Shown here: positions 4,033-37,135 of the stretch, piece after piece
How positions within the stretch are numbered: the first letter of the stretch is position 1
Layout: every line of letters starts with the position of its first letter
NCBI GenBank assembly: GCA_965217865.1
Contig: CBDCJO010000002.1
Span: 864,001-928,000 of the forward strand
Length of the DNA stretch: 64,000 nt
DNA from: Candidatus Latescibacterota bacterium
GTDB lineage: Bacteria > Latescibacterota > UBA2968 > SICM01
Reading direction: 5' to 3'
Translations under genes and position numbers: made by a program
Notes under the pieces: model-generated
What the model was told of the DNA's origin: nothing
Seen by the model: the letters and a program-made list of their open reading frames with translations, nothing else
Database searches by the model: none

Positions 4033-5385
4033 TCGTCCGGTTATCTAACTTTCGAAATATTCCATGGCGCATCACATTATCTACATCTGTATCATTCTGA
4101 TCTTTCTCGCAGGACTCGGATTCATAGAACACCTGACGTGGAAAGAATGCTTGCGGTTGTTTTTGATCCAGATTGGGCTGATGTTTCTCTACATCAAATT
4201 TCGCGTTCATCTTGAAATTCCAAATCAGAAAGTCAGCCGGCCCAACAAAAGCGACAAACTCCATTCCGGATCCATTGTCGTTGCTCTGGTCGTTTCGTTT
4301 GTGATTTCACAGTTTGATCCCGCCACGTCGTCGGCTTCCTTTGGAGAACCAGGTGGCCGTTTGAATCCCTTCTTCATCATATCCACGGTTTTGTCCTGTG
4401 CGGCGTTTTCTACCTTTGCAATTGCACGTGGGCGTGAGCTTCGATTTCGATACCTGACATCCCTGGACCGGGTCGCATCCGTTGTTATTTTCGGAACCAT
4501 TGGGATGTCGTTGGGATCCAAACAGCTCCTGGGATACGGGATCTCGGGTTCGGATCTCCTTGCCCAGGTGAAGATTCTAAGTTTTCTTCTCATCTGGTTT
4601 GCTGTGACGCGCAGTTTCTCGGACCCCGAATGGAAGGGCCTTCCGGTACAGGATGGCAGGTTTGCGGGTATTTTGGCGGATCGTTGGAAAGGGACGCTGA
4701 TTGCGGTGTCCCTTATTTTTGTTCCTGCACTGATGTATGGGATCTACAGGACAGGAGCTGTTGTGTATCATTATAAAATTGGCCAGGAGTTTTTTCAGAC
4801 GGAGGAATTGGAAGCTGGAAGACAACATTTCGAGGTTTCCAACAAGCTGAATAGGACGGTGGATCTTAGGCAGGTGCGGGTAGGCTGTCTGAGCGATCTC
4901 GCTGTTATTAATCTAAAACAGGGAGATGATAAAGCTGGCCGGGAAATGATTGCCGAGCTCCGAGGTGCGATTTACAACAAAGCGGAAGCAAACCGAAAGG
5001 TCGGAGATGTATATTTTAAAGTCGGAATGTGGGCGGAGATGAGCGAGGCATACGAAGCGTTCATTGGACAGGCGGGAAAGGATATCGAGGTTTTAGATCG
5101 CCTTGGGGAGGCATATATGCATCAAGGGAATTCCCGAGGGTTCCTAAATATGGTTCGAGACTATCAGTATATGCCTCAAGTGGTTGCGGGTGCTTAGGAG
5201 GGAAATATTTTTCTGGGGAATGTGGACTTTTATCGAAAAGATTTTGAGACAGCTCTGGGTCATTTCAAAGCAGCCGCCCGGTTGAAGCCGGAGGATTCAT
5301 ATTCACTATACAAATTGGGAAGGACTTACCTTGAACAGGATAAATACGACCTGGCGATAAGGCAGTTTCAGAAGGCCGTGAAATT

Positions 5386-6160
5386 GGTAATTATGCACTT
5401 GACTAAGTTACTATTTCATATTGACGGGCCAAGAAAGAGAGGTTATCATGGGTAGATGGCTAAGTTCTTCTTCGTTTTTCGGGCATTGTATGCCGTCGGC
5501 TCTGGGGCCATTGGATTGGCTGGAGTTAGCGATGATATCAAAGTGTGGAAAAACGAGTGGTTGCCCATGTTGAATCTGGAACTAGGAGTAAGTGTTGCGT
5601 TGCTCGCTTCAGCGCCGATTGTCCTCCTTGGACCTTGGTTATGGTCTGTCATCCGCCCTTCTCCGATATCTAAGCCGGAGAAGGGCGAATTATCAACCGA
5701 GCAGCTGGAGGAAGCATACAACGCTGTATCCATTGGCCATTCACCTGAGCCAATTTGGTATGTGGCATTAAGAGTAGAAGACGCTGTATTCGGTGCTTCT
5801 GACTTTATGAACCCGAGTACCAGCATTTCGTCAAGATCAGACAGAGCGCACATTCCAAAGCACGAGGACGCATACGTAGCGTTCGCCATACCAGCATATC
5901 TGGCCGATCCTATCAACGTTGACCCCGACGACCAAGGTCTAAATCAATTTTCAGCTTTCACGGAAATTGGCACTCTCCGTATCCATGGCAAAGATTACAA
6001 GGCGTGGAGGTCTAACCAGAAATGGATGATCCATACCGATATGGTGCTGGTAGTCAAGCTGCTACCAATTCCCGGTACGTGATATTGTCCGTGTTCATGA
6101 TTCTGCGGAGCGTATCGTGGAACAGGCGAGGATTGTTCCTTAGTCAAGTGCATAATCACC
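5386..6160. mobile_element. Non-autonomous IS1595-like mini-element with one passenger gene and no transposase
   Basis: 22-bp TIRs GGTAATTATGCACTTGACTAAG / GGTGATTATGCACTTGACTAAG (1 mismatch); 8-bp target duplication GTGAAATT at 5378-5385 and 6161-6168; interrupts the TPR gene. Confidence 0.9.
5456..6082 (+). CDS. Hypothetical membrane-anchored protein (passenger of the mini-element)
   Basis: 208-aa ORF filling the element, with N-terminal hydrophobic segments. The start is uncertain: an RBS-preceded ATG at 5448 is out of frame. Confidence 0.65.
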   Translation: MAKFFFVFRALYAVGSGAIGLAGVSDDIKVWKNEWLPMLNLELGVSVALLASAPIVLLGPWLWSVIRPSPISKPEKGELSTEQLEEAYNAVSIGHSPEPIWYVALRVEDAVFGASDFMNPSTSISSRSDRAHIPKHEDAYVAFAIPAYLADPINVDPDDQGLNQFSAFTEIGTLRIHGKDYKAWRSNQKWMIHTDMVLVVKLLPIPGT

Positions 6161-6527
6161 GTGAAATTGGATCCGGGTTTTGCCGACTCATACTACCGGC
6201 TTGGGGTTTGCTATGAAAAACAGGGAAATCGAGGACGGGCAAATGGTTTATATGAAAAGACTGTTGCTTTGTTGCCGAACCACATCGACGGGCTCCTGGC
6301 GCTTCGGCGCACGCAAGAGAAATAGTCCATCCTGCTTGCTTATCAACCCGATCGGATGTTTTGATAAGATCCCGATCCCTCTATAAAAGATCCCTCAAGG
6401 CTTATCTTTCCTGAAGAATTCGTAGGTTCTGCCGAAATATCATATAAGCTATTGATCTAAATTGAATTATTCCTGGTGGCGACGCAATAAACTTTTCCAA
6501 CCAAAGAAATATTTCCTGATATATGTC

Positions 6528-7136: not shown

Positions 7137-8662
7137 CAGCCTGTTGAAAAAGTGCGTTTATGCCAAGATGACTGTTGTCTTTCCTTGTGGTTTGGTCCTA
7201 TGATATATCAGGTTCAAACTGAGAAGGGAGGACGAGCAAATGGCAATGGGAAAACGAGGACGACAGAGACAGGAAAACCTGTTCATCGCATCGAACACTT
7301 TGGTGAAATCTCCGGGTCATCCGTTCTACGAGAAGCTGAATCAGGTATTGGGGGCGAACGGCTTCGACGAGTTCGTCGAGGGGCTTTGCCAGCGGTATTA
7401 CGCTCCTCATATGGGTCGCAAGGGCATTCCGCCCGGGGTTTATTTTCGGATGCTTTTGATTGGGTATTTCGAGGGACTTGATTCGGAACGTGGGATCGAA
7501 TGGCGTGTATCTGACTCGCTGACGTTGCGCCGGTTTTTGGGGTATGCCCTTGACGAACAGACCCCGGATCATTCCAGCCTGTCTCGCATCCGGCATCGGC
7601 TTCCCTTGGAAGTTCACGAAGCGGTTTTCAAGTGGATCCTGAGGGTCTTGTGCAAAGCGGGTCTGGTGAAGGGGAAGACGTTGGGCGTGGATGCTACGAC
7701 ACTGGAGGCCAACGCCGCGATGCGCAGCATTGTACGCCGTGACACGGGTGAAGGCTACCAGGCATTCCTTGAGAATCTGGCCAAGGCCTCGGGCATTGAA
7801 ACGCCTACCCGCGAGGACTTGTCCAAGATCGATAAGAAGCGACCGAAGAAGGGATCGAACCAGGACTGGGAGCACCCGCACGACCCGGATGCCAAGATCG
7901 CTAAGATGAAGGACGGTCGCACGCACATGGCGCACAAGGTGGAGCACGCGGTGGATCTGGACACCAATGCCATTGTGGCAGTGGCGTTGTCGGGAGCAGA
8001 TGAAGGAGATACCGAGTCGTTGCCCTGGACGCTGCTCGAGGCGCAGCTCAATCTCAAGCAGGTCGCGAAGGACGAAAAAGCTGCCAAACGTTTGCACAGA
8101 CAGCGTATACGGGAGGTGGTTGCGGACAAAGGATATCATAGCAACGATGTATTGACCAGTCTGAAGCAAGGCGGCATCCGGAGTTACATTTCAGAACCGG
8201 ATCGGGGACGCCGCAAGTGGAACGGCCGACGAGATGAGCAGGCCGCGGTATATGCGAATCGACGCCGGATCAAGGGAGATCGCGGCAAGGCCTTGCGCCG
8301 AAGTCGTGCAGAACGGGTGGAAAGAACCATCGCTCACACATATGATACCGGTGGCATGCGCAGGTTGCACTTGAGAGACCGCGGCAATATCCTCAAGCGT
8401 TTGCTGATCCACATCGGGGGCTGCAACCTGGCTCTGCTCATGCGCAAAGTGATGGGCGTAGGTACTCCGAAGGCCCTCCAGGACCTGGCCAAGGCCTTGC
8501 AGCGTCTACTGCTCGTCCTACAATCACGTTTGCTGCCCTCGGTCACCTTTTTAACCTCTTATCAGCGTCTCCTGCTCAATCTCCTTACCTTGATTTATCC
8601 GACCCGCACTCCAGGCGTCTTTTCCGTTTATGTGCGTTGAAAGGTAGTTCTTCAACGGGCTG
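7137..8662 (+). mobile_element. IS1182/IS5-like insertion sequence, copy 1 (1526 bp)
   Basis: TIRs CAGCCTGTTGAAAAAGT / CAGCCCGTTGAAGAACT; 4-bp duplication CTAC at 7133-7136 and 8663-8666. Confidence 0.9.
7240..8640 (+). CDS. DDE transposase (DUF772 + DDE; IS1182/IS5-like)
   Basis: TPDHSSLSR, GVDATTLEANA, VADKGY and RVER motifs. Confidence 0.9.
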   Translation: MAMGKRGRQRQENLFIASNTLVKSPGHPFYEKLNQVLGANGFDEFVEGLCQRYYAPHMGRKGIPPGVYFRMLLIGYFEGLDSERGIEWRVSDSLTLRRFLGYALDEQTPDHSSLSRIRHRLPLEVHEAVFKWILRVLCKAGLVKGKTLGVDATTLEANAAMRSIVRRDTGEGYQAFLENLAKASGIETPTREDLSKIDKKRPKKGSNQDWEHPHDPDAKIAKMKDGRTHMAHKVEHAVDLDTNAIVAVALSGADEGDTESLPWTLLEAQLNLKQVAKDEKAAKRLHRQRIREVVADKGYHSNDVLTSLKQGGIRSYISEPDRGRRKWNGRRDEQAAVYANRRRIKGDRGKALRRSRAERVERTIAHTYDTGGMRRLHLRDRGNILKRLLIHIGGCNLALLMRKVMGVGTPKALQDLAKALQRLLLVLQSRLLPSVTFLTSYQRLLLNLLTLIYPTRTPGVFSVYVR

Positions 8663-27073: not shown

Positions 27074-28588
27074 AGAACTACCTTTCAACGCACATAAACG
27101 GAAAAGACGCCTGGAGTGCGGGTCAGATAAATCAAGGTAAGGAGATTGAGCAGGAGACGCTGATAAGAGGTTAAAAAGGTGACCGAGGGCAGCAAACGTG
27201 ATTGTAGGACGAGCAGTAGACGCTGCAAGGCCTTGGCCAGGTCCTGGAGGGCCTTCGGAGTACCTACGCCCATCACTTTGCGCATGAGCAGAGCCAGGTT
27301 GCAGCCCCCGATGTGGATCAGCAAACGCTTGAGGATATTGCCGCGGTCTCTCAAGTGCAACCTGCGCATGCCACCGGTATCATATGTGTGAGCGATGGTT
27401 CTTTCCACCCGTTCTGCACGACTTCGGCGCAAGACCTTGCCGCGATCTCCCTTGATCCGGCGTCGATTCGCATATACCGCGGCCTGCTCATCTCGTCGGC
27501 CGTTCCACTTGCGGCGTCCCCGATCCGGTTCTGAAATGTAACTCCGGATGCCGCCTTGCTTCAGACTGGTCAATACATCGTTGCTATGATATCCTTTGTC
27601 CGCAACCACCTCCCGTATACGCTGTCTGTGCAAACGTTTGGCAGCTTTTTCGTCCTTCGCGACCTGCTTGAGATTGAGCTGCGCCTCGAGCAGCGTCCAG
27701 GGCAACGACTCGGTATCTCCTTCATCTGCTCCCGACAACGCCACTGCCACAATGGCATTGGTGTCCAGATCCACCGCGTGCTCCACCTTGTGCGCCATGT
27801 GCGTGCGACCGTCCTTCATCTTAGCGATCTTGGCATCCGGGTCGTGCGGGTGCTCCCAGTCCTGGTTCGATCCCTTCTTCGGTCGCTTCTTATCGATCTT
27901 GGACAAGTCCTCGCGGGTAGGCGTTTCAATGCCCGAGGCCTTGGCCAGATTCTCAAGGAATGCCTGGTAGCCTTCACCCGTGTCACGGCGTACAATGCTG
28001 CGCATCGCGGCGTTGGCCTCCAGTGTCGTAGCATCCACGCCCAACGTCTTCCCCTTCACCAGACCCGCTTTGCACAAGACCCTCAGGATCCACTTGAAAA
28101 CCGCTTCGTGAACTTCCAAGGGAAGCCGATGCCGGATGCGAGACAGGCTGGAATGATCCGGGGTCTGTTCGTCAAGGGCATACCCCAAAAACCGGCGCAA
28201 CGTCAGCGAGTCAGATACACGCCATTCGATCCCACGTTCCGAATCAAGTCCCTCGAAATACCCAATCAAAAGCATCCGAAAATAAACCCCGGGCGGAATG
28301 CCCTTGCGACCCATATGAGGAGCGTAATACCGCTGGCAAAGCCCCTCGACGAACTCGTCGAAGCCGTTCGCCCCCAATACCTGATTCAGCTTCTCGTAGA
28401 ACGGATGACCCGGAGATTTCACCAAAGTGTTCGATGCGATGTTCAGGTTTTCCTGTCTCTGTCGTCCTCGTTTTCCCATTGCCATTTGCTCGTCCTCCCT
28501 TCTCAGTTTGAACCTGATATATCATAGGACCAAACCACAAGGAAAGACAACAGTCATCTTGGCATAAATGCACTTTTTCAACAGGCTG
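27063..28588 (-). mobile_element. IS1182/IS5-like insertion sequence, copy 2 (1526 bp, inverted relative to copy 1)
   Basis: Same TIRs as copy 1; flanks TTAG / ATAG (4-bp duplication with one mismatch). Confidence 0.9.
27085..28485 (-). CDS. DDE transposase, near-identical to 7240-8640
   Basis: 466 aa; three amino-acid differences visible (F/N, A/V, P/L). Confidence 0.9.
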   Translation of the reverse strand: MAMGKRGRQRQENLNIASNTLVKSPGHPFYEKLNQVLGANGFDEFVEGLCQRYYAPHMGRKGIPPGVYFRMLLIGYFEGLDSERGIEWRVSDSLTLRRFLGYALDEQTPDHSSLSRIRHRLPLEVHEAVFKWILRVLCKAGLVKGKTLGVDATTLEANAAMRSIVRRDTGEGYQAFLENLAKASGIETPTREDLSKIDKKRPKKGSNQDWEHPHDPDAKIAKMKDGRTHMAHKVEHAVDLDTNAIVAVALSGADEGDTESLPWTLLEAQLNLKQVAKDEKAAKRLHRQRIREVVADKGYHSNDVLTSLKQGGIRSYISEPDRGRRKWNGRRDEQAAVYANRRRIKGDRGKVLRRSRAERVERTIAHTYDTGGMRRLHLRDRGNILKRLLIHIGGCNLALLMRKVMGVGTPKALQDLAKALQRLLLVLQSRLLPSVTFLTSYQRLLLNLLTLIYLTRTPGVFSVYVR

Positions 28589-34263: not shown

Positions 34264-34876
34264 ACCCCTGCTTGCATATACGGTTGAAGCGGCCAAACAT
34301 TGCAATATTTTTGACCAGATCTATGTGAGCTCCGAAGATCCAGAGGTCCTTTCGGTAGCTGAGGCTTATGGAGCCACATCGGACTCCAGGCCACGCCATC
34401 TCTCTAAAGATGAGGTGAAGATCATCGAGGTCATCCAGGAGTTTCTGAAACGTCGCGAAATCTCTCCCGATGTCCACGTTGGTGTTCTCCTGGCTACCTG
34501 TCCCCTTAGACTTCCCGAAGACATTCGGAAGGCCTACTCTCTTTTTGTCGATGCCGATGGTTCGGCCCCCGTCGCGAGTGTATCCCCGTTTGAGCGGCCG
34601 GTTCAAGTCGCACAAGCCATAAACCAGAGAGATCGCTTGCAGCCAATTTTTCCAGATGAGTACCTGAGGACCACCCGCAGTCAGGACCACCAGACGGCTT
34701 ATTGGTACAACGGCGCCATCGTTTTCAATATCGCCAAGAGGCTGGCGACCCAGCGGACGCTCATCGGAGAAGAACCCATCCCCTACGTGATGCCGTTTGA
34801 ACGATCGATCGATATCGATCATCAATTTCAGTTAAGGATGGTCGAGTCCATTTTAAAAGGGGGATTACATATTTAA
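34178..34876 (+). CDS. NeuA-family cytidylyltransferase; last codons replaced by the IS1595 end (native end KDMSN*)
   Basis: FIPARGRSRRVKQKNL, NGAI and SIDID motifs. Confidence 0.85.
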   Translation: MEPRRVAFIPARGRSRRVKQKNLVSLAGKPLLAYTVEAAKHCNIFDQIYVSSEDPEVLSVAEAYGATSDSRPRHLSKDEVKIIEVIQEFLKRREISPDVHVGVLLATCPLRLPEDIRKAYSLFVDADGSAPVASVSPFERPVQVAQAINQRDRLQPIFPDEYLRTTRSQDHQTAYWYNGAIVFNIAKRLATQRTLIGEEPIPYVMPFERSIDIDHQFQLRMVESILKGGLHI

Positions 34877-34877
34877 C

Positions 34878-34906
34878 TTGACAAAAGTCGAGAAATCATT
34901 TAGGAT
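34878..34906 (+). promoter_or_regulatory. Inward-facing promoter from the left TIR, antisense to the cargo genes
   Basis: TTGACA-17 bp-TAGGAT. Confidence 0.55.
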
Positions 34907-35048
34907 TGTTTCGTTGAGTGCCTTTCTGCTGCTCTTTCTGATGGTCTGCTGAATGTTTCTCTTGTCTGTCCACTTGGCCCGACGGCCGTCGGCGTAAGGC
35001 TCGGGCTAGCGCTTCGGGTGTCGCGCCTTTAAACTCGTAACGTGGCAT
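34896..35048 (-). CDS. Small 50-aa hypothetical protein (absent from the ORF track)
   Basis: MPRYEFKGATPEALARALRRRPSGQVDRQEKHSADHQKEQQKGTQRNNPK*; GAGGAGG RBS 5 nt before ATG. Confidence 0.6.
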   Translation of the reverse strand: MPRYEFKGATPEALARALRRRPSGQVDRQEKHSADHQKEQQKGTQRNNPK

Positions 35049-35155
35049 ACACGCCTCCTCAAACATACAAGGGGGGGCGCCAGTTTCACGCCCCGTTGAG
35101 TAACCTGCAACTCCTTTACGGTGCCTGCAATCGCGTGAAAGTAGTTAGGGGGATT

Positions 35156-35533
35156 TTAAGGCCTCTTGGGAAAAAGATAATTTGCGACGATGACGAACAA
35201 CCCCAGAACCGAAATTGTGGTTGAGCCGATTAGAGTAGTGAGCACAGTGACGGAGAGTTTGAATGAGATGGGACTTAATCCGTGCAGAAGCATGATTAAG
35301 CCAACAACAATGAGCCAACCGACAATGAGCCAATATAAGCGGTTTGCGTACGTTTTACGTTGATCGCGGTCCTGAGTGAGATCGTTGATTTCGGCTTCAA
35401 GTCGTTGGTTATAAAGTCGAAGCCGTTGGTTATCAAGTTCTTTTTTCTCGTCATCGAACAGACTGACGTCTTGCTGATCAGGTTCTGGAAGCTTATCAGT
35501 CCGGACGGTGCGAAGGTCTTTAAGTTCCGGCAT
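35156..35533 (-). CDS. Coiled-coil + 2-TM membrane protein, candidate PanT-type toxin
   Basis: Overlaps the stop of the Panacea gene; charged helix followed by two hydrophobic helices, ending YLFPKRP. Confidence 0.6.
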   Translation of the reverse strand: MPELKDLRTVRTDKLPEPDQQDVSLFDDEKKELDNQRLRLYNQRLEAEINDLTQDRDQRKTYANRLYWLIVGWLIVVGLIMLLHGLSPISFKLSVTVLTTLIGSTTISVLGLFVIVANYLFPKRP

Positions 35534-36029
35534 TTGCCGAGATCTTCTGTGCAAAGTGTTTCTTGATGATGTTATTCGGAATCACCAAGTTATAGCCATA
35601 GGGATTCTTTTTCCTTATTGTATCCCAAGGCCCCCCAGGTTCGTGTGTGAGTTGCGATAGCGACAGCCCAGGCATGTGACCATAGACCTCCCACGCTCGT
35701 TCGATGAGTTCCATCGCGAAAGTATCCTCGGGAGGGACGCGCGGCGTGTTCCACTGTAACCTTCTGTGCTCACCGACATCCATAGTTTCTAAGGGCCCCA
35801 TGATGGGCCTACTCCCCCAGACTTTCACTACTTGGTAAAGATCTGGAAAAACCGGTCCCCATCTCCAAGCCTGTGCGTTCTCGGCGCTCAAGGCCCCCTT
35901 ATCGAATCCGAGGTGCCACCCGTGACTGAAGTACACCAGTTTCTGGATTTTCATCGCGTCTACCGTTTCGCCTGAAGACTTAGCGATATCCAGGAAACTA
36001 TTAGCGACTGCTTCGGCCAAGTACGGCAT
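35520..36029 (-). CDS. Panacea-domain (DUF4065/SocA/GepA) antitoxin
   Basis: VANSFL, MKIQKLVYFSHGWHL, AWRWGPVFPDLY and LSQLTHEPGGPW motifs. Confidence 0.88.
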   Translation of the reverse strand: MPYLAEAVANSFLDIAKSSGETVDAMKIQKLVYFSHGWHLGFDKGALSAENAQAWRWGPVFPDLYQVVKVWGSRPIMGPLETMDVGEHRRLQWNTPRVPPEDTFAMELIERAWEVYGHMPGLSLSQLTHEPGGPWDTIRKKNPYGYNLVIPNNIIKKHFAQKISANAGT

Positions 36030-36044
36030 GATCTTCTCTCCCTT

Positions 36045-36989
36045 CTAACTTTGAATCAGTTCCTTATACATCAACCGTTTTCCGATCATCCCCGCAACAA
36101 CGGATTGCATCTGCTTCACGGTATCCACGTCCCGAATACTGCAACGTCCAGCGAATTCATTGACGTAACGCTGCAGATGCTTGAGGCTCATTTTGTGATA
36201 GGTGCCATAATAGCCACGCTTCAGCAATGCCCAAAAGCTTTCCATACCGTTCGTGTGAGCCTTTTTTCTTACAAACTCGCCAACGCTGTGCTTCACGGAT
36301 TTGTGATCAAAGCCGTACATGTTCTGATAGGCCGTTGCATCATCCGTATAGACCGTTGCGCCATCCTTCACATTGTTGTGGACAAAACCCTGAAGGGTCG
36401 CGCCGTCCGTGTGTTCAACTACTTGAGTTCTTACTTTTCGCGTCTTACGATCCTTCGCACCCGCCACGGCAACCTTGCCTACTGTGCCTCGCCCCGCGTG
36501 CAACTTCTTATTTGCATGCTTGTTCTTTTCCCTGCCACCGATATAGGTCTCATCAACCTCAACGGGACCCTCGAACTTTACCGCCATATCCGTCCCCCAT
36601 GTTTCACGTAGGCGGTGGAGCATGAACCATGCGGTCTTTTGCGTCACCTTCAAATCCCGATGGAGCTTCATACTGGAAACACCTTTGAGATGTGTGACAC
36701 AGATGTAAATCGCAAAGACCCACTTGCGAAGTGGCAGGCGAGATTTCTCTATGACAGTGCCAGTCTTGACGCTGAAGTAAGACCGGCAATCCGTGCACCA
36801 GTAAGGCATGGGCTTGGTATTGGGTACCTCGCGCGTCTTGACGCTTCCACAATGACCACAGCAACGATCCCCATTCCAGAGCTGCTTTTCAAACCAAATC
36901 ACCGCGGCCGCTTCATCTGGAAACATGTCGGCCAATTCGAGAATCGAAATTCCCTTGCGGTGAGACTTTCCAGGCGCTTTCTGTGACAT
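36045..36989 (-). CDS. IS1595-family transposase
   Basis: Zn ribbon CGHC..CTDC; VEVDETYIGG, VYTDD, HTNGMESFW and YVNEF motifs. Confidence 0.93.
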   Translation of the reverse strand: MSQKAPGKSHRKGISILELADMFPDEAAAVIWFEKQLWNGDRCCGHCGSVKTREVPNTKPMPYWCTDCRSYFSVKTGTVIEKSRLPLRKWVFAIYICVTHLKGVSSMKLHRDLKVTQKTAWFMLHRLRETWGTDMAVKFEGPVEVDETYIGGREKNKHANKKLHAGRGTVGKVAVAGAKDRKTRKVRTQVVEHTDGATLQGFVHNNVKDGATVYTDDATAYQNMYGFDHKSVKHSVGEFVRKKAHTNGMESFWALLKRGYYGTYHKMSLKHLQRYVNEFAGRCSIRDVDTVKQMQSVVAGMIGKRLMYKELIQS

Positions 36990-37038
36990 GGCAATTGTCC
37001 TTTTTGTTGTTTACTCTCTGTTCTAACAAACAATTTTA

Positions 37039-37067
37039 AATATAAACAATTGCCTTGCGTTTGTCAA
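37039..37067 (-). promoter_or_regulatory. Transposase/cargo promoter from the right TIR
   Basis: TTGACA-17 bp-TATATT on the minus strand. Confidence 0.6.
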
Positions 37068-37135
37068 GTTAAATATGTAATTCCCTTTAAAAGACATGTC
37101 CAATTGATGCGGGAATATCACACGGAGACTGCGTT

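Follow-up and report, generated by a model that had tools for sequence, protein, structure and literature searches.

A transposase-less IS1595 cassette and its predicted membrane-protein gene in a Candidatus Latescibacterota genome

Candidatus Latescibacterota bacterium is represented by the assembly GCA_965217865.1 (here G000), a genome of 6.43 Mb in two contigs. We analysed a stretch of 64,000 nucleotides of contig CBDCJO010000002.1 (positions 864,001 to 928,000 of the forward strand, hereafter "the window"), in which a 775-bp segment interrupts a gene for a membrane/tetratricopeptide repeat (TPR) protein. Our explanation, to which we assign a probability of about 0.8 as a whole, is that this segment is a deletion-derived cassette of the insertion sequence (IS) family IS1595, which is moved in trans and whose cargo protein would tether a phage-fibre-type domain to the membrane, most likely in phage defence. 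The nature of the element as a transposase-less IS1595 cassette is highly probable, whereas the role of the cargo taken by itself is proposed tentatively. Genomic loci are given in contig coordinates (C2).

Structure, copies and origin of the cassette

The cassette occupies positions 5386-6160 of the window. Its 22-bp terminal inverted repeats (TIRs) at 5386..5407 (plus strand) and 6139..6160 (minus strand) match each other at 21 of 22 positions, and the 8-bp target-site duplication GTGAAATT is perfect on both sides, at 5378..5385 and 6161..6168. The original prediction, which had described exactly such a segment and attributed it to the IS1595 family as a non-autonomous, moved element, is confirmed in its boundaries and supported in this attribution. 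In chance controls at the same spacing of 775 bp, an 8/8 direct repeat was seen in three of 200,000 random position pairs, and inverted ends of at least 16/22 were equally found in three of 200,000. The single long open reading frame (ORF) on the plus strand of the cassette, at 5456-6082, is the cargo gene and encodes 208 aa. A sigma-70-like promoter (TTGACG, 17 nt, TATCAT; 10/12) was located at 5421..5449 on the plus strand; it is a consensus match only, and the promoter scan of the cassette with two sites against 1.2 +/- 1.2 in shuffled sequences is not above chance by itself. Because this match stops 6 nt 5' of the ATG of the cargo gene, a leaderless start of the cargo transcript would be possible.

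Three copies of the cassette without a single difference were found in the genome (C2:869386, 3762427 and 4612821), each with a separate 8/8 duplication and each interrupting another of three unrelated genes, namely the TPR gene, cas2 and a gene for a HAD hydrolase. Since the copies are identical and their duplications separate, the cassette has been recently mobile, and a one-off dead deletion was rejected on the same grounds. The copy at C2:3762427-3763201 (L003) splits cas2 (PF09827, E 3e-16 on the upstream part), so that spacer acquisition at this locus is probably disabled.

Eight of the 11 public runs containing all or part of the stretch were compared by means of their contigs. In runs X1 and X3, the contig of the element has about 2-3x the depth of the flanks and its loose ends fit the two other genomic sites, and in X8 a contig extends across the right junction as far as the TPR gene. 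Two further insertion sites are hinted at by these data. In X7, one contig (depth 3.7) links the left end of the cassette to a sequence which is uninterrupted in G000 (C2:5016792-5016799), and in X11 the left and right flanks carry a new common 8-bp duplication (contig depths 3.5 and 3.2), the left cassette end apparently being without 27 bp of the repeat. An empty-site joint at the TPR locus was detected in none of the eight runs, although contigs cannot show absence, and no RNA run is listed among the public runs containing the stretch. Cassette DNA was present in none of 40 relatives searched, many of which are incomplete.

A search of G000 for the cassette end with up to four mismatches gave 45 matches, and the ten with at most one mismatch belong to the three cassettes and to two copies of an IS1595 element of 4,602 bp, hereafter "the partner" (L001 and L002, C2:312143-316744 and 4587905-4592506). 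The partner is the likely answer to the search for an autonomous element which the prediction had proposed. Its two copies are one base apart and both have 8/8 duplications, and its intact transposase of 297 aa scores 205.8 bits against NF033547 (cut-off 75) and comprises zinc ribbon and DDE domains. As passengers it carries a 172-aa two-helix membrane ORF and a methylase-HNH gene which is split by an IS3-family element of 1,565 bp; because both copies contain this same element, they must have moved after its insertion. One copy is inserted in a protein kinase gene and the other in another IS1595 transposase. Over the five sites of cassette and partner copies, A and T account for 31 of the 40 bases in the duplications.

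The ends of partner and cassette agree at 21-22 of 22 positions: the left TIR of the cassette matches the partner ends at 21/22, the right TIR matches the left partner end at 22/22 and the right one at 21/22. Eight other IS1595 types in the genome, with transposases whole or broken and including both IS1595 elements of the window, reach 7-13 of 22. The two window elements (11/22 and 13/22) are unlikely helpers, and the expectation that a helper other than these two local elements moves the cassette is probably right. As judged from these ends, it is likely that the cassette is moved in trans by the transposase of the resident partner.

The prediction had stated that no transposase lies inside the segment. 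This holds for a transposase gene of its own, but directly inside the right end, at 6054..6137 on the minus strand, lie the last 84 nt (27 codons and the stop) of an IS1595 transposase gene, which overlap the 3' end of the cargo gene and are identical to the partner transposase at 25 of 27 aa and 71 of 84 nt. By tblastn, only aa 270-297 of the transposase are matched in the cassette. Passenger and transposase are convergent, in the same layout as in the partner. Because the transposase tail is retained, the cassette looks like a deletion derivative, and it is likely that it arose by internal deletion from a passenger-carrying IS1595 and is still mobile. One breakpoint of this deletion would lie just inside the right end and the other 84 nt ahead of the transposase stop, and it may have occurred at a microhomology of three bases. 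The parent was probably a sibling element, as its tail has 85% identity to that of the partner and its left interior is a different one.

Contigs from other runs contain related arrangements. One contig of X9 has the 3' half of the cargo gene (three differences in 232 nt) fused to transposase sequence from upstream of the breakpoint of the cassette, and this transposase sequence and the repeat end share three bases at the junction, a possible microhomology. Another contig of the same run carries a 90%-identical cargo allele together with a different transposase tail, and X10 contains an allele of 86% identity.

The cargo protein and its possible role

The cargo gene (5456..6082, plus strand) encodes two predicted membrane helices, a linker and a C-terminal beta-sandwich domain of aa 95-208 (5738..6079, plus strand). 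No family match was obtained in Pfam, NCBIfam, PHROG or PADLOC, and the family scans also gave no match of the cargo to a transposase family. The original assessment of the ORF as unassignable therefore stands as far as curated families are concerned, yet the ORF encodes a real protein with relatives. A decayed transposase was rejected, as the gene lies on the opposite strand to the transposase tail, has a family of its own and is modelled as a beta-sandwich. In the libraries searched, no description of this family was found.

A search of 1.84 billion representative proteins returned 15 matches, corresponding to 14 distinct relatives, P0001 being the cargo itself with another start. In six of them (P0002-P0004 and P0006-P0008), the C-terminal domain follows one or two hydrophobic segments, while P0005 has only the two-helix N-terminus in common with the cargo (52%). 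Six others (P0009 and P0011-P0015) contain the domain within non-membrane proteins; P0011-P0013 have tail-fibre or virion matches in PHROG, and one further non-membrane relative has a weak head-tail connector match. The long match P0010 was set aside as it does not match the domain profile. Two fibre-like relatives were added later, P0016 and P0025, the latter with 1,111 aa and a terminal domain. The domain stands at the very end in seven of eight non-membrane, fibre-like or head-tail-connector-like relatives. Sequence identity is 26-37% between the cargo domain and P0011-P0016 plus P0025, and within the cargo family conserved motifs are kept at 30-57% identity. In the contigs of X9 and X10, the domain is fused to other 5' sequences near the same boundary, so that helix and beta-domain modules are shuffled.

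A fold model from the cargo sequence alone was unusable, with a mean predicted local distance difference test (pLDDT) score of 31.7; the domain model built from 15 sequences is a beta-sandwich with a pLDDT of 92.4. Comparison of this model with the BFVD database by Foldseek gave phage proteins in all of the top 40 rows, with template modelling (TM) scores of 0.51-0.68 and probabilities of 0.98-1.0, five of them at E < 0.001, and these include tail fibre, tail, baseplate and structural proteins. Among solved structures, Foldseek found no match at E < 0.001 and generic sandwiches only; the best hit in the VIA search had a Z score of 5.3 (root-mean-square deviation 3.0, 78 aligned residues), and a Z of about 5 is within the background of that search. 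The best atlas scores for the cargo, 0.86 and 0.82, belong to hypothetical proteins and are leads only.

In an unrooted tree of 15 domain sequences, the seven forms with a membrane anchor are all found to the same side of one branch (support 92/87, not starred); because the tree is unrooted, the direction of the change between membrane and fibre forms is not shown. A tblastn search found no match in 50,697 phage records, and plasmid records gave none either. When viral contigs were scanned with the cargo domain, no relative could be confirmed, and the same scan with P0012 gave one match, outside the domain. The domain is present in none of 167 other genomes of the phylum, many of which are incomplete.

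The helices are predicted by hydropathy at aa 4-22 and 41-59. Since four to six Lys/Arg residues follow the last helix in the five homologues P0002-P0006, a cytoplasmic beta domain is favoured, and we predict that the cargo has two membrane helices and a cytoplasmic domain, by which, as the fold model suggests, a phage-fibre-type domain would be tethered to the membrane. A virion-type domain held at the cytoplasmic side of the membrane would encounter its relatives only while phages are being assembled, which suggests a decoy or a sensor. In eight of nine other passenger-bearing IS1595-type elements delimited in G000, the passengers are methylase-HNH, restriction, HsdR-N, Panacea antitoxin or PycTM-like genes; this census is not exhaustive, and one of the eight was assigned by DNA similarity to a scanned methylase. 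Because so many comparable elements carry restriction, antitoxin or defence-like genes, phage defence is our leading guess. The cargo may act for instance as a decoy or sensor which meets phage tail proteins during assembly, a role that we regard as tentative and short of an even chance. More speculative, and on balance unlikely in this full form, is the idea that IS1595 transporters captured the end domain of a tail fibre, fused it to a membrane hairpin and now spread it, in part through a one-gene cassette free of transposase, as a new single-gene anti-phage system, in which the tethered protein would either trap tail proteins during assembly as a decoy or sensor or open the membrane when it meets them.

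Two other readings of the cargo have to be considered. It may be a neutral hitchhiker, a short derivative with intact ends having been copied in an IS-rich genome without benefit from its gene, and this is a real possibility although it too falls short of an even chance. All three cassette copies break host genes, the domain is missing from the other phylum genomes, and G000 contains many other non-autonomous IS1595 pieces without useful cargo (232 bp, 345 bp, 394 bp and 397 bp). On the other hand, the cargo ORF is intact and has the promoter-like site just upstream, the motifs of the family are conserved, and the membrane-anchored forms group together in the tree. Alternatively, the domain could be an outward-facing adhesin or glycan-binding module from a phage fibre, exposed at the cell surface or located in the periplasm. 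Surface glycans are frequent ligands of phage fibre tips, several of the generic beta-sandwiches among the best solved-structure matches (Z <= 5.3) occur in sugar-acting enzymes, and P0008 with its one helix could put the domain outside; the basic residues after the last helix in P0002-P0006 favour the cytoplasm, however, and such Z scores are background, so that we consider an adhesin unlikely.

Several observations weigh against the overall explanation of a trans-mobilised cassette with a defensive cargo. The PHROG matches of the fibre-like relatives lie mostly outside the shared domain and have E values of 1e-5 to 1e-2, the homologues were compared as protein sequences, and the positive-inside pattern, clear in five homologues, is even in the cargo itself. 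Among the listed differences of the 90% allele (15 of 23), seven are silent and eight change codons, which does not point strongly to constraint. No match to PADLOC 2023 was obtained at E 0.01 for the cargo and four homologues, and one cassette copy, by knocking out cas2, costs defence. With regard to mobility, the additional sites in X7 and X11 are single low-depth contigs, X7 shows only one junction, and the flanks in X11 are absent from G000. We infer mobilisation in trans from indirect signs (identical copies, polymorphic sites). Finally, the cassette does not descend directly from the partner, whose left interior and passengers are different (the 172-aa ORF is unrelated to the cargo), and therefore another, unseen sibling could be the helper.

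Related elements and the interrupted TPR gene

Such a helper could be the true parent itself or a different IS1595 sibling, carried by a plasmid, a phage or a co-occurring strain. The transposase tail of the cassette is only 85% identical to the partner, X9 holds cargo alleles joined to other transposase sequences, and near-identical ends occur on elements of other genomes (L023, L024 and G049). The resident partner, however, is intact and has itself moved recently, as seen from its two copies one base apart with their own duplications, and the assembly contains no closer transposase; we therefore rate an external helper as rather improbable and retain the resident partner as the likely one.

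Elements with the same ends were searched for widely. Neither G000 nor 168 phylum genomes, nor the genome, metagenome and viral collections, yielded a transposase-less sister in which these ends enclose another cargo. The 18-base end motif was located at 18 metagenome loci; five of these adjoin an IS1595 transposase, and one gave a doubtful pair (L009, 6/8 duplication). Three loci from the genome collection represent two autonomous IS1595 elements in Acidobacteriota records, one of 3,109 bp (L023:1914-5022) and one of 4,040 bp (L024:5001-9040), both with the two ends, a perfect duplication, their own transposase and unrelated passengers. Six of seven viral loci were analysed, L045 overlapping L044; four have an IS1595 transposase and none a duplicated pair. 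In G049, related elements with frameshifted transposases of 70-78% identity and no duplication were seen. The suggestion that sister cassettes would make up an undescribed gene-cassette system was not upheld, as the transposase tail suggests a deletion, the class is already known as mobile insertion cassettes (MICs), and no sister was detected. That these ends form a dedicated system for the capture and delivery of interchangeable single genes is highly improbable. In favour of it is another transposase-less cassette, of 2,140 bp, which has an 8-bp duplication, ends like those of IS1595 (16/22 against those of the present cassette) and genes for a methylase and a restriction enzyme, but a simple deletion explains the origin, sisters with these ends and other cargo are missing, and the variety of cargo resides in autonomous elements.

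The 2,140-bp cassette (L040) is a single copy at C2:3777324-3779463 in an alpha-L-rhamnosidase gene; its inverted ends match at 21/22, its two ORFs encode an N6/N4 methylase and an EcoO109I-like nuclease, and no cognate transposase was identified for it. Furthermore, G000 harbors two families of IS1595-type MITEs (miniature transposable elements with inverted repeats), of 232 bp (13 copies, e.g. C2:454583-454814) and 345 bp (six copies, e.g. 238449-238793), with 8-bp duplications and ends of 18-19/22 against the cassette; no autonomous element with exactly these MITE ends was found in G000. Together with IS1595 remnants of 394 bp and 397 bp and with the 2,140-bp cassette, they illustrate that deletion derivatives are common in this genome. 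An IS1595 of 2,226 bp at window positions 34860-37085, with three genome copies, has as passengers a gene for a Panacea/SocA antitoxin and a membrane ORF of 132 aa, possibly a toxin-antitoxin pair. Other IS1595 transporters are located at C2:4039344-4042258 (L038; a PycTM-like 176-aa membrane protein and a methylase-HNH protein), 5105872-5108110 (L042; an HsdR-N protein) and 1904790-1906778 (L039; a Panacea gene and an unknown partner).

The TPR gene is split into a 5' part at 4064..5385 and a 3' part at 6169..6325, both on the plus strand. According to the prediction, it reads through cleanly once the segment is removed. Excision of the cassette indeed restores the frame across the junction, but a second lesion, a separate in-frame stop at 5195-5197, lies about 190 bp upstream of the cassette. 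The rejoined gene aligns over its full length with all five orthologues tested (34-42% identity, 481-530 aa), which are open at both the stop site and the insertion site. Since contigs of X1 and X3 over 4900-5412 are identical to the window, the stop is not an assembly error; the order of stop and insertion cannot be told. At window position 6195, the same loose contig end occurs in X1, X3 and X7 with a motif absent from G000, which could reflect a further insertion or strain variation within the 3' part of the gene. Elsewhere in the window, sugar-pathway genes are interrupted at 7240-8640 and 27085-28485 by two transposase ORFs of another family, which are nearly identical and encode 466 aa each, and several further genes of the polysaccharide cluster seem broken into overlapping ORFs.

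Comparison with known systems

MICs such as MIC231 of Bacillus cereus and the TnXax1-type cassettes of Xanthomonas are described as transposase-less cassettes moved in trans (PMC4337579; PMC3129680; PMC3281130). They share with the present cassette a passenger gene between IS-related inverted repeats, the lack of a transposase, a target-site duplication and a cognate transposase elsewhere in the genome. Here, a 208-aa gene lies between IS1595-matching ends without a transposase of its own, 8/8 duplications flank all three copies and the cognate transposase is intact. Thus, the cassette shows every MIC feature tested and is an IS1595 MIC. It differs from the described MICs in its IS1595 ends and 8-bp duplications instead of IS231 or Tn3, in the retained transposase tail, in a cargo that belongs to no curated family, and in its movement in trans, which in our case we infer.

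Transporter IS elements of the IS1595 family (MTnSag1/tISSag10, tISCpe8) are reported to carry passengers and to have ends of about 25 bp and 8-bp duplications (PMC5704250; bioRxiv 10.1101/2021.05.26.445724; PMC11891212). The cassette resembles them in its 22-25-bp inverted ends, 8-bp duplications, AT-rich targets and passenger gene; in contrast to them, it keeps only 27 transposase codons, and its passenger is no resistance gene. The 4,602-bp partner, which encodes a zinc-ribbon DDE transposase of IS1595, fits this class, whereas the cassette does not. With the IS1595 MITEs the cassette has in common that it is short, non-autonomous, present in several copies and of the same end type, but unlike them it contains an intact gene, whose 208-aa product has 14 distinct relatives and a confidently predicted fold. 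The paper by Siguier, Gagnevin and Chandler (2009) which defined the IS1595 family reportedly lists non-autonomous derivatives. No published IS1595 cassette carrying a comparable cargo was found in a literature search that did not reach most subscription papers.

The cargo domain resembles the C-terminal beta-sandwich of phage structural and tail-fibre proteins in BFVD (e.g. R9ZXP1 of Cellulophaga phage phi12:1 and proteins of crAss-like phages), with TM scores of about 0.6-0.68 over 105-130 columns, except that in the cargo two membrane helices precede it in place of the shaft of a fibre. A functional analogy may be seen in the Tai defences, which inhibit phage tail assembly and are described from prophages and satellites (PMC11364771). 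They are likewise small genes on mobile elements acting on tail assembly; the likeness concerns the proposed function only, and they are encoded on prophages or satellites, not on IS cassettes.

The cassette provides a clean and complete case of a known process, with the parent class, the deletion scar, a likely resident helper, identical copies, polymorphic sites and a cas2 knock-out. What is new is the cargo. It represents a family without a name in which a domain of phage virion type is predicted to be anchored to the membrane and which travels with elements that mostly carry restriction or toxin-antitoxin genes. We consider this family a reasonable candidate for a new phage defence consisting of one gene. 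If the cargo does protect against phage, the passengers of IS1595 elements would be a source of new one-gene defences, and in this cassette a component of phages would have been put to use against them.

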